Positions 4,942-43,676 of a stretch of DNA of 64,000 nucleotides are shown one piece after another; positions within the stretch are counted from its first letter, which is position 1; each line of letters begins with the position of its first letter. The position numbers and the translations under genes are program-made. The notes beneath the pieces are model-generated. The model was given only the letters and a program-made list of their open reading frames with translations. It did not search any database and had not been told where the DNA came from. The DNA lies in the sequence record NC_100372.1, one strand, 5' to 3'. The DNA comes from a phage.

Positions 4942-5197
4942 TCTTGCTAAACCTGTAGAAGCACACCAGTTTGACGGAAGCTCTTCATCAGTATCTGATC
5001 TGCAACGGTGGATTGATACAGGTGTGTTTACACCGTCACCTGTTCGGACCAGAGATATTCTTCGCATGTGTGAGCTTGTCGAGCCGTTTGGTAACCTGGT
5101 CTTGTACCAAGGGGATTGGTTAGTTGACTTTATGGGAGACTGGTTGGTAATGAGCAAAGAAGAGATGTTTAAAATTTTTAAGGAAGAGGCTGAGTAA
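4928..5197 (+). CDS. Hypothetical protein
   Basis: 89-aa ORF, overlaps neighbours by a few nt. Confidence 0.35.
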   Translation: MLLFNLAKPVEAHQFDGSSSSVSDLQRWIDTGVFTPSPVRTRDILRMCELVEPFGNLVLYQGDWLVDFMGDWLVMSKEEMFKIFKEEAE

Positions 5198-6480
5198 TGC
5201 ATCAGATCAAAACAACACTGTACGCACTGAACAAAGATGGCAGCTACCAACAGTGGAAAGTATTCACGGATGGTGATAAGGTTATTGTAGAGTTTGGCAA
5301 GCTTGATGGTAAACTGCAATACAAAGAGACGATCTGCACACCTAAGAACGTGGGTCGTGCCAATGAAACTACAGCTGAGCAACAGGCTGAGCTGGAAGCG
5401 ATCAGTAAGTGGGAAAAACAAGTCCGTCTGGGGTATGTTGAAAATATGGAAGATTGCGAGCAGGGTGTTGACCTTTTACCCATGCTGGTGCATGACTACC
5501 TGAAGCGTGGAAAGGCACTTAAATTACCTTGCTGGATCTTGCGTAAGTTAGATGGCCTTCGTCTACTGGTTGTTTTCCAAAACGGTGAGCCTAAATTTAT
5601 TTCCCGTGGTAATAAGTCCTACCCTATTCAAGGAAAGCTTCTGGAGCAACTTCGTTCTTTCCACTTCACCACCGGGATTAAACAGCTCGACGGAGAGATC
5701 TATATTCATGGTCTGCCTCTGCAGAAAATAGTGTCTCTTGCTAAACGTTGGCGCACACAGGAAGAGATTCAGGCCGAGATCGATAAAGACTACGAGGCAG
5801 ATAAAAAACGCCGTCATGCCGCAATTAAGGCAGGCTTATCAACATACAAAAACTTCAATAAGGTAGATATTCCTGTTGATGTTGAGCCTGTTCGTGATGA
5901 TTTGCGTTACGGAGGGTACTGTAGCTATGACTTAGAGTATCATATTTTCGACATCCCTAGTGACAAGGTATGGTGGGATCCGGAAACAGAATCTGGACGA
6001 TGCAAGGATCTTATGGATGCAGAAGATACCATTACCACTCTGATGCTTGACCATATCAAGGTTGTTGACGCAGAGCTTGCGTACACAGTTGATCATTGCG
6101 AAGAATCTGTTGGTGTATTCATGTCCGAAGGATATGAAGGTACTATCATGCGTAACTTCTGTGGTAAATACGAATACGGTCAGCGAACATCTGAAGCATT
6201 GAAATGGAAAAAGTTCAACGATGCTGAGGTGAAAGTTATTGACGTTGAGAAAGATAAGAATGATGAAGGTGTTCTTATCTGTGTTGACAAGGAAGGTATC
6301 GTTGTTAAAATGAAGATGAAAGGTACGCACGAGGAGCGTAGCTATGACAGGATGCAGGAAATGATCGGCAAGTTTGTCACCTTCAAATATCAAGCAAGGA
6401 CAGAAGACAACAACTACCAATTCCCTGTCGGCATCTGCGTCCGAAATGTTAACCCAGACACTTGGGAGGTTCTGGAATGA
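5197..6480 (+). CDS. ATP-dependent DNA ligase
   Basis: Motif I KLDGLR (KxDGxR) in ILRKLDGLRLLVV; 427 aa. Confidence 0.7.
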   Translation: MHQIKTTLYALNKDGSYQQWKVFTDGDKVIVEFGKLDGKLQYKETICTPKNVGRANETTAEQQAELEAISKWEKQVRLGYVENMEDCEQGVDLLPMLVHDYLKRGKALKLPCWILRKLDGLRLLVVFQNGEPKFISRGNKSYPIQGKLLEQLRSFHFTTGIKQLDGEIYIHGLPLQKIVSLAKRWRTQEEIQAEIDKDYEADKKRRHAAIKAGLSTYKNFNKVDIPVDVEPVRDDLRYGGYCSYDLEYHIFDIPSDKVWWDPETESGRCKDLMDAEDTITTLMLDHIKVVDAELAYTVDHCEESVGVFMSEGYEGTIMRNFCGKYEYGQRTSEALKWKKFNDAEVKVIDVEKDKNDEGVLICVDKEGIVVKMKMKGTHEERSYDRMQEMIGKFVTFKYQARTEDNNYQFPVGICVRNVNPDTWEVLE

Positions 6481-6604
6481 TGTAGGAAGGTTTAGTAGGT
6501 AACGGTAGCCAATTGAATGATGGTTTTTCAATTGGCACCTGCATAACCACATTATGCAGTGTTGTTGATCGGGTTAGTTATGAGTAAATTGGAGAGTATG
6601 AAAA

Positions 6605-7075
6605 ATGAAACTTGATAAAAATGTTCAACGAAAAGCTTTCTTGGATATGATCGCATATTCAGAAGGTACAGATAACGGTAGACAACCTACCAAGGATCGG
6701 GGCTATGATGTCATAGTCGGTGGCAAGCTGTTTAGCGATTACAGCAAGCATCCGGGTGTGTACGTTAAGCTAAATGCTAAACTTACCTCCTCTGCTGCGG
6801 GGCGCTACCAAGTTTTGGAGAAGTTTGCTAAACACTATATGAAACAGTTAGGATTACCAGATTTTGGCCCTGCCAGTCAGGATAAGATCGCACTACAATT
6901 GATCCGTGAGTGCAAGGCGCTCGATGATATTGATGAAGGTCGTATTCATCAGGCCATCCATCTTTGCAGATCCCGATGGGCAAGCCTTCCTGGTGCAGGG
7001 TACGGTCAGCATGAACAGAAGATTGAGAAGTTGATCGAGGTGTTTAAAAAGGCAGGCGGCATTGTCCTAGATTAA
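6605..7075 (+). CDS. Lytic transglycosylase endolysin, phage lambda R-like
   Basis: Strong full-length similarity to lambda R as recalled from memory: QRKAFLDMIAYSEGTDNGRQ, GYDVIVGG, AGRYQ, WASLPGAGYGQHEQK, KAGG. Confidence 0.85.
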   Translation: MKLDKNVQRKAFLDMIAYSEGTDNGRQPTKDRGYDVIVGGKLFSDYSKHPGVYVKLNAKLTSSAAGRYQVLEKFAKHYMKQLGLPDFGPASQDKIALQLIRECKALDDIDEGRIHQAIHLCRSRWASLPGAGYGQHEQKIEKLIEVFKKAGGIVLD

Positions 7076-7138
7076 TCATTGACATGACCACATGGACGTG
7101 GTATTGTTACCTAGTAAAATGTTAAGAAGGGTTTAACC

Positions 7139-7345
7139 ATGAAAGATTTTCTGTTGGCAATTTTGTTCATGGCAGCATGTCTGGCCTGTGGTGTCGTGTT
7201 TGCAGGTGAAACAGCGTATCTTGTCGATGTATATCGGGACAATGGTAAACGTATTTGCCTTTATGAAACAAGCCAAGGTGAGCTCTACGAGCTTGTTAAA
7301 CAAGGCGAGGCTGGATCTTGTCCTCGGACTCACTTCTTCGAATAA
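7139..7345 (+). CDS. Small lipoprotein
   Basis: Hydrophobic N-terminus with lipobox-like LAC/G (MKDFLLAILFMAACLACG); 68 aa; two further Cys (C40, C61) in the mature part. Confidence 0.45.
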   Translation: MKDFLLAILFMAACLACGVVFAGETAYLVDVYRDNGKRICLYETSQGELYELVKQGEAGSCPRTHFFE

Positions 7346-7356
7346 GGTTGGTAGTA

Positions 7357-7574
7357 TGGCTTTAGAAGGCACTGATTATATTCACGATTACCGTGGGAGT
7401 GCAGTGTATGTGGGCGATACTGTTGCAGTATACTACGGTTATGGTTCCCTAGAAACAGCGAAGGTCATACAGATCAAGAATGACCGTGCTAAGCTTGAAG
7501 TTTATTACTCTAATGGTGAAAGATCGATTTCTAAGTGGAAAGATGGTCATTGTATGGTCAAATTGGAGGGCTGA
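7357..7574 (+). CDS. Hypothetical protein
   Basis: Start chosen at MALEGTDY with an upstream AAGG RBS; the longer track ORF 7188-7574 overlaps the lipoprotein gene. Confidence 0.4.
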
Positions 7575-8689: not shown

Positions 8690-9821
8690 AGAATATCCGC
8701 TTATTGAGTCCATAGATTGTCTAGCTGATCTTCTTGAACCTGACGCTATAGTTTATTATGACTTCGATCAGGTTGCATACCAAGCTGCAGCAAGCTGTGA
8801 AAAAAGGACAATTGAGGTAACACATAAAGCCTCCGGACGTAAGAAGGTGTTTAAAACACGAACAGAGTTTTGGGGGAGGCAGAAGAACGCAGTTGGCGGC
8901 TGGTTAAAGGCTGAGAACACCAACCGTGAAGCTGCATGTAAAAAAGCTGGCAAGGAGTTTATTCCGTGGACACGAGAAGATTTCGATGTCTTGGATATCC
9001 AAACCCCTGATCCTGTAGAGAACTGCTTGCACACAATTAAGTGTAAAGCTAATGCAGTCCTTAACTATCTCGGTATTCCTGAAGATCGGTGCGTAGGGGT
9101 GCTTGGAGGAACAGGCAATTTCAGACTAGATCTTCCCATGCCGGAACGATATAAAGCCAACCGTAACAATACTCTTCGACCACTGTTGCTTGAAGATGCA
9201 AGACAGTATCTACAAAAGCAATATAACGCTCAAGTGATCAACGGTATTGAAGCTGACGACTGGTTAGCTATCCAGCAATTTGAAGGTTGGAACCACTACC
9301 AGAAAACAGGAAAGTTCAACAAGTTTATTATCTCTATAGATAAGGACCAGCGAACACTTCCTGGGCTTGTATTCGATCCGATGAGGAACGATAAAGGTGA
9401 TTTTGTAAGAGAGACACCTATGCTCATTGATAACGGTATGGGTAACATATTCATGAAACCAAACGGCGATGTTGGTGGGTATGGAATGTTGTTCTTCGGT
9501 TATCAAATGCTGTGTGGTGACTCGGCTGACAATATTAAGCCTTACCAAGGGCTTATTGGTAAAGGAAAGTTTGGAGATGCATCTGCATTCTCCTTACTGT
9601 CTCAGTGCAGCACACCGAAAGAGATGTGGTTAGCAATTATTGATCAGTATAAAAAATGGTTTCCGAAAGGTGCCGTTAAGTATACTGATTTCAATGGTAT
9701 CGACCGTAGGATTTCCGTAGGCCAGTGGATGAGTATAATTTTTGACTGTTTGTATATGAAGCGAACATTCAATGATCAAACAAAACTTGTTAACGTTCTT
9801 AGAAATGTTGGAGCAATTTGA
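8682..9821 (+). CDS. Flap endonuclease / 5'-3' exonuclease (FEN, RNase H-like)
   Basis: FEN signature NGIEADDWLAI and helix-hairpin-helix region CGDSADNIKPYQGLIGKGK; 379 aa. Confidence 0.7.
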   Translation: MSREYPLIESIDCLADLLEPDAIVYYDFDQVAYQAAASCEKRTIEVTHKASGRKKVFKTRTEFWGRQKNAVGGWLKAENTNREAACKKAGKEFIPWTREDFDVLDIQTPDPVENCLHTIKCKANAVLNYLGIPEDRCVGVLGGTGNFRLDLPMPERYKANRNNTLRPLLLEDARQYLQKQYNAQVINGIEADDWLAIQQFEGWNHYQKTGKFNKFIISIDKDQRTLPGLVFDPMRNDKGDFVRETPMLIDNGMGNIFMKPNGDVGGYGMLFFGYQMLCGDSADNIKPYQGLIGKGKFGDASAFSLLSQCSTPKEMWLAIIDQYKKWFPKGAVKYTDFNGIDRRISVGQWMSIIFDCLYMKRTFNDQTKLVNVLRNVGAI

Positions 9822-10144
9822 TGACTAAAAATTCTGTAGATAATGCAATTATGGAAGCTGTTTTTGAGGATGATCATACAACAGGGACCCTTAAAACAAA
9901 AAATACATTTATTGTTGCTACAGGTATGTGGCGGTTGTATGAAGATGACACTATTGCATACATCCTGTATACTGATGATTACGCAGATGATCGTGTATGG
10001 TCTGCTGTTTTAAAAGAAGATTGCGAGCTGATTGAGGGCGAGCGGTTATGCATGTTTACCAGCGTGGAAACAGACGTTAAGCTTTGCTCTCTTGTGCTAT
10101 TCAAAGACAAAGCTTATTCTCCAGATGAAGAGGAAACAGCATGA
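9818..10144 (+). CDS. Hypothetical protein
   Basis: 108-aa acidic ORF, translationally coupled on both sides. Confidence 0.4.
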   Translation: MMTKNSVDNAIMEAVFEDDHTTGTLKTKNTFIVATGMWRLYEDDTIAYILYTDDYADDRVWSAVLKEDCELIEGERLCMFTSVETDVKLCSLVLFKDKAYSPDEEETA

Positions 10145-10770
10145 GAGAAAGACTGCTGTCTATAGACCAGTCTCTTACCCACACAGCCTGTGTTGTATGG
10201 GACGATGGTAAGCCTGTTCATAAGATTGTGTTACGCACACAAAGCTCATCTGCAAAAGAGAAGAAACCAGGGACGGTTTCTTTTGCAACAGCTGCTGAGC
10301 GTATTGACTGGATCTGCAAACAGGTTAGATATTATATCCACACGCACGGAGTCGATACTGTGGTTATGGAAGGGCTTTCCTTTGGATCGCGAGGTGATGC
10401 CACACGTGAGCTGGCTGGGTTGTTTTACGGTCTTGAAGTTATGCTTTGGGATGCTTTAGCAGATTGTGAAAATGACGGCCTGTTTAAGGTTCACACAGTG
10501 ACACCAACAACTGCCAAAAAGTTTGCTCGTAGTCATCTTCCTGAAGAACTTGCTTTTGAGGAGAAGAAAAAGCTTGACAAAAGGACAGGTAAAGAGCATA
10601 CTGTGAAGAAACCTGTTACGATGGATAAAAAGTTGATGGTTAAGGCCTGCGAAGTATCTGAACCCGGGTTCCTGGATGGGATCAACTTGGTACAAGGTAA
10701 GGCCGATCTCGCAGATGCTTATTGGATAGGCAGGGCGCATCTGGAGGGATTATCGCAAAGCGTAAAATAA
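10141..10770 (+). CDS. Putative RNase H-fold nuclease (RuvC/YqgF-like)
   Basis: N-terminal LLSIDQSLTHTACVVW (Asp-containing strand), later VVMEGLSFGS and DLADAYWIGRAH; tentative. Confidence 0.4.
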   Translation: MRERLLSIDQSLTHTACVVWDDGKPVHKIVLRTQSSSAKEKKPGTVSFATAAERIDWICKQVRYYIHTHGVDTVVMEGLSFGSRGDATRELAGLFYGLEVMLWDALADCENDGLFKVHTVTPTTAKKFARSHLPEELAFEEKKKLDKRTGKEHTVKKPVTMDKKLMVKACEVSEPGFLDGINLVQGKADLADAYWIGRAHLEGLSQSVK

Positions 10771-28907: not shown

Positions 28908-29144
28908 ATGAGTATAGATGCTGTGCTGATAGGTTACCTGGTAGTAGCTGTTATAACAGCAGTAATCTTGGCAGGTATATGCATCGTGTCTACACGAAGG
29001 GTGAAGTTTGATGATTTTATCACCATCATCACTGCTGCGCCCTTTTGGCCTGTTGTTATCTTCATCGTAATAATGTGCCTAGTTGATTACCACAAGAATA
29101 TCCGTAAGGAGAAAAAGGAGAGTAGGGATGGATACCGCACCTAA
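28908..29144 (+). CDS. Small membrane protein (two predicted TM helices)
   Basis: VLIGYLVVAVITAVILAGICIV and IITAAPFWPVVIFIVIMCLV; GGAG RBS. Confidence 0.4.
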   Translation: MSIDAVLIGYLVVAVITAVILAGICIVSTRRVKFDDFITIITAAPFWPVVIFIVIMCLVDYHKNIRKEKKESRDGYRT

Positions 29145-43391: not shown

Positions 43392-43676
43392 TTAACGGTT
43401 CACGTAAGTTTTCCCGTTTACGGTTATCGGCAGATCCTCCAGGTCTGGATCTTCTTTAAGGTCGCGAGCAAGTTCACCGCACCGGACGCCCTCGAATCCG
43501 TAGTACTCTGTAGTGCCGTCCTTAAAAGTTTTTGCGGCAAGGCATAGGCGATAAGTAACCCCGATTTGATTGACGGCATGGATATCAGTTAGATCTACCT
43601 CTTTTGCCAACTCTTTAGCCATTACAGGCGCATTAAGTCCAACAACCAGGGCAACCACTGCGATCATCTTTTTCAT
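43392..43676 (-). CDS. Small secreted/periplasmic protein
   Basis: Signal-peptide-like N-terminus MKKMIAVVALVVGLNAPVMA followed by KE; two Cys in the mature part; 94 aa. Confidence 0.45.
   Translation of the reverse strand: MKKMIAVVALVVGLNAPVMAKELAKEVDLTDIHAVNQIGVTYRLCLAAKTFKDGTTEYYGFEGVRCGELARDLKEDPDLEDLPITVNGKTYVNR

Follow-up and report, generated by a model that had tools for sequence, protein, structure and literature searches.

A lambda R-type endolysin gene adjoins a conserved gene for a small, predicted secreted protein in an rV5-like phage of Escherichia coli

The phage DNA analysed here is a stretch of 64,000 nucleotides (sequence record NC_100372.1; hereafter the window), in which two adjacent plus-strand genes at positions 6605-7345 are the subject of this report. 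Both open reading frames (ORFs) are confirmed, the first (6605-7075) encoding an endolysin of 156 residues and the second (7139-7345) a protein of 68 residues, which a preliminary description made from the sequence had taken for a lipoprotein. When about 4 kb around 6605-7345 is compared with phage records, 124 of them match. The best are the Escherichia phages ECP2303 and ECP2309, with 98.6% identity over the full length, and every classified match is a Vequintavirus, the genus of rV5-like myophages of ~137 kb. By these matches, the window is assigned to a Vequintavirus of E. coli. The locus is a plus-strand replication and nucleotide-metabolism module, in which genes for an RNA ligase, a Sir2-like protein, a MazG-like protein, two small ORFs and an ATP-dependent DNA ligase (5197-6480) precede the endolysin gene. 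The 68-residue ORF, a DUF7205 gene, an HNH endonuclease gene, a 97-residue ORF, a ‘transposase-like’ ORF, a 5' exonuclease gene and a RuvC-like resolvase gene follow it. The preliminary description had placed the endolysin among DNA-metabolism genes and outside a late lysis cassette, which agrees with its position between the DNA ligase gene and the HNH endonuclease and 5' exonuclease genes.

The product of 6605-7075 is, by sequence, a soluble lambda R-type (GH104) lytic transglycosylase endolysin with predicted catalytic activity. In a phmmer comparison, residues 4-154 align with residues 3-153 of lambda lysozyme (PDB 1am7, E=1.5e-56; 3d3d, E ~1e-56), and 95 of the 151 ungapped residues are identical (63%), so that the close likeness to lambda R claimed earlier is borne out. 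The protein also matches phrog_90 (endolysin, E=4e-55). Because a Pfam-A scan yielded no family at E<=0.1, membership in GH104 rests on the match to a solved structure and on PHROGs. In the alignment to 1am7, Glu20 within YSEGTD falls on the Glu of the lambda sequence WSEGTD, the catalytic residue Glu19 of the lambda enzyme. The N-terminus, MKLDKNVQRKAF, is hydrophilic, and a hydropathy scan detects no hydrophobic segment, so neither a signal peptide nor a signal-anchor-release (SAR) domain is present; the protein is therefore expected to be a canonical cytoplasmic, holin-dependent endolysin. It equals lambda R in length, and neither of the two is exported by a signal. Their genomic settings differ: the lambda gene belongs to the S-R-Rz/Rz1 cassette, whereas here the gene lies between DNA ligase and nuclease genes, the spanin genes lie beside the large terminase gene (terL), and no holin is recognised. 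Over 100 GenBank genomes label the product an endolysin or a lysozyme, and a lambda R-type endolysin among replication genes with no adjacent holin is already described for rV5-like phages.

The smaller neighbour, 7139-7345, is a real gene under strong purifying selection. Its 68-residue product is identical in phages AlexBoehm and Gotham despite many silent changes in the gene. Across the 46 mature codons, the comparison with AlexBoehm gives 12 synonymous and no non-synonymous changes (synonymous divergence, dS, 0.55; non-synonymous divergence, dN, 0), and against a more divergent lineage dS is saturated while dN remains at 0.08-0.17. The gene also has a ribosome-binding site and a promoter-like site of its own. 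Residues 1-68 align with the full 68-position profile of phrog_4641 (E=4.4e-28), and a Certrevirus homologue, CB7_226, falls in the same family (E=7e-33). Scans against Pfam, NCBIfam and PADLOC returned no usable family, the Llp and Cor families among those left unmatched, and a profile search of 1.84 billion representatives with the family recovered small secreted relatives only; matches to repeat proteins in that search were judged spurious and attributed to low complexity. No function is assigned to the protein by database or fold comparison.

In domain terms, the protein consists of a signal peptide (residues 1-22, MKDFLLAILFMAACLACGVVFA; 7139-7204, plus strand; Kyte-Doolittle score 2.74), with signal peptidase I cleavage predicted after VFA, and a mature periplasmic domain of 46 residues (7205-7345 including the stop codon, plus strand; 5.3 kDa, isoelectric point (pI) 4.9). 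The AlphaFold2 model (mean predicted local distance difference test score, pLDDT, 82) places a signal helix ahead of four β-strands. The mature domain holds two invariant cysteines, Cys40 and Cys61. Their invariance fits a structural disulfide in an exported protein, and a Cys40-Cys61 bond probably stabilises the mature domain. Taken from sequence and model, the product is a predicted Sec-exported, 46-residue, mostly acidic and β-rich periplasmic protein, its cleavage being a prediction.

The N-terminal region was compared in a family alignment of 17 members, 10 of them close homologues drawn from a collection of 5.8 billion proteins and 7 more distant, drawn from phage records and a profile search. 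Apart from its hydrophobicity, the N-terminal stretch of 22-44 residues varies freely, and in all 17 members a small-x-small signal-peptidase I motif stands 1-3 residues before the conserved domain (VFA/G, AWS/G, AHA/G, AQA/S, AEA/A, ARA/T or SYA/G, the slash marking the cleavage position). A strict lipobox pattern is matched by 0 of the 17. A permissive pattern is matched by 4, through F-M-A-A-C14, and the other 13 match none; the true o-spanin of the near-identical genome NHEP1 (PQ511146.1), used as a positive control, passes the permissive pattern at the expected Cys. Cys14 and Cys17 are confined to the window lineage, and cleavage at Cys14 would give a hydrophobic mature N-terminus. The only cysteines kept in 17/17 members are Cys40 and Cys61, so that the pair earlier regarded as ‘extra’ is in fact the invariant one. 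Five members, 63-73% identical, have no N-terminal Cys of any kind, and the three of these that were looked up all lie directly after the endolysin gene. On this alignment the 68-residue protein is not a lipoprotein: the gene and its length given in the preliminary description stand, and the lipid anchor (lipobox in 4/17 members, signal-peptidase I site in 17/17) does not.

An outer-membrane lipoprotein, acting either as an o-spanin or as a Cor/Llp-type exclusion protein that masks a receptor, had been the function proposed for this gene, and the protein is indeed small and exported, with a permissive lipobox in the window lineage. Such an identity is nonetheless very improbable. The lipobox match is absent from members that are 63-74% identical (P0005-P0010); the looked-up contigs among them (P0006 and P0010) show the same gene position. 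A signal-peptidase I site occurs in every member. With no lipid anchor, a spanin or Llp/Cor role is disfavoured. As to an o-spanin, the neighbours are the endolysin gene and the DUF7205 gene, both encoding proteins with no transmembrane (TM) segment, so no i-spanin gene is adjacent, and a complete spanin pair is encoded elsewhere in the genome. That pair is located in NHEP1 directly upstream of terL, outside the window: an o-spanin gene at 9714-10001 (95 residues, lipobox L-C-G/C, proline-rich body) and an i-spanin gene at 9998-10396, whose 132-residue product fits an i-spanin in having one TM segment at the N-terminus and a C-terminal part that is charged and rich in Lys and Glu. The mature domain of the 68-residue protein has one proline, compared with the proline-rich o-spanin of the same genome. 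As to Cor/Llp, no Llp or Cor family is matched, and the 68-residue family is kept across genera with different hosts and with reportedly non-homologous tail fibres (PMC7344957); their receptors therefore probably differ too, which argues against receptor masking. The family resembles Rz1-type o-spanins and the T5 Llp/Cor lipoproteins in being made of small exported phage proteins, but the lipobox that defines them is not conserved here, and the true o-spanin is a different gene.

The other lysis functions of this phage group are encoded apart from the endolysin. The spanins of CB7, rV5 and PVP-SE1 are reported to be encoded next to terL and not in a lysis cassette (PMC7344957), and a spanin survey lists rV5 among the families with separated spanin genes (PMC6139136). 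The genome paper of LL12 identifies an endolysin, an i-spanin and an o-spanin, but not a holin (PMC6658697). A second peptidoglycan hydrolase, SleB-like (PF07486, Hydrolase_2), is encoded outside the window, at 88719-89219 of NHEP1 (10220-10720, minus strand, in L012); it has an N-terminal signal peptide or SAR-like segment, and its gene stands beside the rIIA and rIIB homologues of the genome, overlapping the start of rIIA. A SleB-like hydrolase with a signal peptide is reported to be present in all Vequintavirinae genera and to be toxic on expression alone (PMC7344957). The lysis genes are thus scattered as in T4 and do not form a cassette. In T4 (e, t, rI, pseT.3/pseT.2), as in rV5, LL12 and CB7, endolysin, spanins and presumed holin occupy separate loci; T4-style systems also share the separate spanin genes with a stop/start overlap and the presence of rIIA and rIIB homologues. 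The endolysin here is of lambda R type, in contrast to the e type of T4, and no T-like holin is recognisable.

The hydropathy scan of all ORFs detects no coding-strand ORF with at least two TM segments within several kb of the endolysin gene, which upholds the earlier statement that no holin-like gene is adjacent. In this neighbourhood the coding strand specifies a single hydrophobic segment, at the start of the 68-residue ORF. No TM protein adjoins the endolysin, the SleB-like hydrolase or the spanins, none of the TM proteins of the window matches a PHROG holin family, and this genome encodes no homologue of phiTE_032 (CB7_82 type), the class II holin candidate of Certrevirus. Within the window, the strongest candidate for the missing holin is a 78-residue protein encoded at 28908-29144 (plus strand), whose two strong TM segments and highly charged C-terminal end (KNIRKEKKESRDGYRT) would give it a class II holin-like topology. 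This protein is restricted to Vequintavirus, belongs to phrog_10061 and is annotated as hypothetical only.

With the holin of the phage group not yet recognised, the 68-residue protein might be a lysis regulator coupled to the endolysin gene and setting the time of lysis, in the form of an RI-like antiholin, a periplasmic sensor, a short signal-anchored holin or a holin partner. The rIIA and rIIB homologues in the genome and the adjacency of the gene pair in two lineages with different flanks speak for it. So does the resemblance to T4 RI: a hydrophobic N-terminal segment, here rich in Ala, Gly and Cys, precedes a small periplasmic domain that has two cysteines, again in a phage with rII homologues. 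There is, however, no similarity in sequence or fold to RI or to any holin family, and no partner holin of the T type, with its large periplasmic domain, is recognised. The single hydrophobic segment is followed by a canonical signal-peptidase I motif in every member, as distinct from the SAR domain of RI, and the cleavage so predicted speaks against a retained membrane anchor. The family also persists in SSBI34, ABPH49 and CB7, which have no lambda R-type endolysin at the locus, and CB7 is reported to have neither rIIA nor rIIB. On balance, a lysis regulator is unlikely.

The distribution of the small gene is wider than that of the pair. The family is found in 192 phage records, among them Vequintavirus, Certrevirus, the Mydo/KNP2/BIS47 group, the W70 group and others, from phages of Escherichia, Klebsiella, Cronobacter, Salmonella, Pectobacterium, Enterobacter, Erwinia, Proteus and Serratia. 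In the Certrevirus-type phages SSBI34, ABPH49 and CB7 the small gene occupies the syntenic ligase-to-exonuclease region, and its neighbours scanned in CB7 and SSBI34 received no functional assignment; in other metagenomic contigs it stands beside unrelated genes, for example those for a NADAR protein or an AAA_33 kinase. The pair is still together in a divergent Vequintavirus-like lineage of uncultured phages (L015-L017), with identities of 61-83% for the endolysin and 63-73% for the small protein, while the flanks differ from those of the window, a metallophosphoesterase gene lying upstream and a different 145-residue ORF downstream. Adjacency is kept in these two lineages only, which lends modest support to a joint inheritance of the genes within some of the subfamily. 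The distant relatives checked have no lambda R-type endolysin at the locus, and the function of the small protein cannot depend on this particular endolysin.

A promoter-like site between the two genes is kept as well. Between the endolysin stop and the 68-residue gene, a sigma-70-like promoter match (TTGACA-17-TATTGT with an extended -10 TG; 7079-7107, plus strand) is conserved in four Vequintaviruses, and in L015/L017 the same position, in a 62-bp spacer, holds TTGACA-17-TATACT with TG. Early expression of the 68-residue gene, read from this promoter, was considered and rejected, since promoters of the form TTGnnn-17-TGnTAAAAT also stand before structural genes of this genome. Promoter type does not separate early from late genes here, because structural genes have similar sigma-70-like promoters. 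In NHEP1, several upstream regions of tail and head genes (L012, L013, L014) share TTGnnn-17-TGGTAAAATA, of the extended -10 sigma-70 type.

Given this distribution, the adjacency may be incidental, with the small protein having a periplasmic role apart from cell-wall enzymes or exclusion, for example interference with host envelope stress, a protease or a defence component; we regard this as possible, at odds well short of even. The neighbours of distant homologues (NADAR, AAA_33 kinase and hypothetical proteins) are unrelated to lysis, and the region is a mosaic of small accessory genes, one of which, directly downstream, is a presence/absence gene. Set against this are the persistence of the pair in two lineages despite rearranged flanks and the fact that nothing positive indicates a particular host target.

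A partner may also be sought in the exported SleB-like hydrolase of the phage itself, for which the 68-residue protein would be a periplasmic inhibitor or chaperone. A periplasmic location is predicted for each of the two, and genera across Vequintavirinae encode both (PMC7344957); the enzyme is reported to be toxic when expressed alone, and the mature small protein is acidic, the hydrolase very basic (pI 9.95). Charge, however, varies within the small-protein family, none of the genomes examined has the two genes side by side, and of the more than 1,100 phage records with a SleB-like hydrolase most fall outside the 192 matched by the small protein. Their co-occurrence carries little information, since wide conservation within the subfamily may alone account for the presence of each. 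This pairing is therefore distinctly unlikely.

The arrangement is best explained by two independent genes of an rV5-like myophage, one for a soluble endolysin and one for a secreted mini-protein, a reading to which we assign a probability of roughly 75%. By analogy with lambda R, the endolysin would accumulate in the cytoplasm and reach the wall only once a holin encoded elsewhere opens the inner membrane, and the outer-membrane step would be carried out by the separate i-spanin/o-spanin pair beside terL. Signal peptidase I would remove the 22-residue signal peptide of the small protein and free the 46-residue remainder into the periplasm. There, the mature protein may protect the envelope of the infected cell as a small binding or inhibitor protein, possibly by blocking the wall-degrading or DNA-entry step of a superinfecting phage or, alternatively, by restraining a peptidoglycan hydrolase in the periplasm; it would form no structural part of the lysis machinery.

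The role given to the mature protein within this two-gene explanation, that of a soluble protein which binds or inhibits some conserved target in the periplasm, is tentative and follows an analogy in logic, not in ancestry, with T4 Spackle. It is favoured because a constrained, exported protein is found subfamily-wide, while receptor masking and spanin or Llp/Cor roles are disfavoured. Spackle (gp61.3) is an early, exported, disulfide-bonded inhibitor of phage lysozyme, 75 residues long and folded as an α-helical bundle (PMC7677548). Both proteins are small, encoded among DNA-replication genes and provided with a cleavable signal (predicted here) and a single Cys pair, whose disulfide is shown in Spackle. 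They differ in that no sequence similarity is found and in that a 46-residue β protein, known from a model, stands here in place of a 75-residue α-helical bundle. A link to cell-wall enzymes in particular is supported by the adjacency of the pair and by the intergenic promoter-like site, both kept in L015-L017 despite the changed flanks. That the small protein belongs to a new type of protein that partners phage muralytic enzymes in the periplasm, whether as an inhibitor or timing factor for a lambda R-type or SleB-like hydrolase or as a Spackle-like exclusion factor with an unrelated fold, is doubtful at present.

Several observations weigh against the periplasmic binding role and, in part, against the two-gene explanation around it. 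The likeness to Spackle is an analogy only, since the fold is β here and α-helical there. Conserved acidity, sought as a hint of lysozyme binding, is not found, the net charge varying across the family. No lambda R-type endolysin or recognised cell-wall hydrolase is present at the locus in four distant contexts (SSBI34, ABPH49, CB7 and contig L009). No second GH104 domain is found elsewhere in the genome, tail genes included, so a GH104-type virion target is not obvious. The promoter does not fix the timing of the 68-residue gene, similar promoters preceding structural genes. Cleavage of the signal peptide is a prediction. T4 RI, too, was initially credited with a cleavable signal and proved to be a SAR protein.

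For rV5-like phages, of which more than 100 near-identical genomes are public, the endolysin and its position, the lack of a recognised holin and the separate location of the spanins have been described before, and in these respects the locus adds little. The useful correction concerns the small neighbour, which is a strongly constrained, predicted secreted mini-protein across Vequintavirinae genera and not a lipoprotein, spanin or Cor/Llp protein. Should it regulate a cell-wall hydrolase or exclude superinfecting phages, it would constitute a new small inhibitor fold. It would then also offer a handle on the unsolved control of lysis in a phage group widely used in therapy and biocontrol cocktails, and a periplasmic partner of this kind would help explain how lysis is controlled in rV5-like phages with no recognisable holin.

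Further sequence elements flank the pair. A second, near-consensus sigma-70-like promoter match, TTGACA-16-TAAAAT with an upstream TG (6284-6311, plus strand; 11/12 matches in the scan), falls within the 3' end of the ligase gene, 290 bp before the endolysin gene begins. Four Vequintavirus genomes share its hexamers but not the spacer sequence, and it may, tentatively, be an internal promoter for the endolysin gene; as the site lies in coding sequence, this conservation may merely reflect the protein. The 124-bp ligase-endolysin spacer (6481-6604, plus strand) contains the ribosome-binding site of the endolysin gene, GGAGAG, and shows 98% mean column identity across four phages, where the nearby 68-residue gene shows a dS of 0.55 between the window and AlexBoehm. 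A promoter scan of this spacer returned no strong match. A hairpin at 6509-6537, GCCAATTGA-N11-TCAATTGGC, with a 9-bp stem, was considered as a significant structure and discarded, its fold being not unusually stable (z = -1.25).

On the other side of the pair, outside it and directly upstream of the HNH endonuclease gene, lies the DUF7205 accessory gene (7356-7574, plus strand; 72 residues; Pfam PF23835, E=2.7e-10). It is a presence/absence polymorphism among Vequintaviruses: AlexBoehm cleanly lacks it, and the 94% coverage of the 4-kb query by many further records would fit the same gap.

Some minor observations were made alongside. In the divergent lineage, the endolysin (L015/L016, 4465-4938) has two segments rewritten, DNGRQPTKDRGYDVIVGG to DRYGGEDASYHILCGG and LPGAGYGQHEQ to FPPPPGAGKLYNQ, and in the same genomes the small secreted protein is altered too, DVYRDNGKRIC becoming DTYRGNGQKVC; the lineages are too few to tell co-variation from shared descent. 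About 20 GenBank records (MG065xxx) labelled ‘Campylobacter phage’ are ~94% identical to this E. coli rV5-like genome, and their host label looks doubtful. Another small, predicted exported protein is encoded on the minus strand of the window at 43392-43676, with 94 residues, a signal peptide (MKKMIAVVALVVGLNAPVMA/KE) and a match to phrog_9845.

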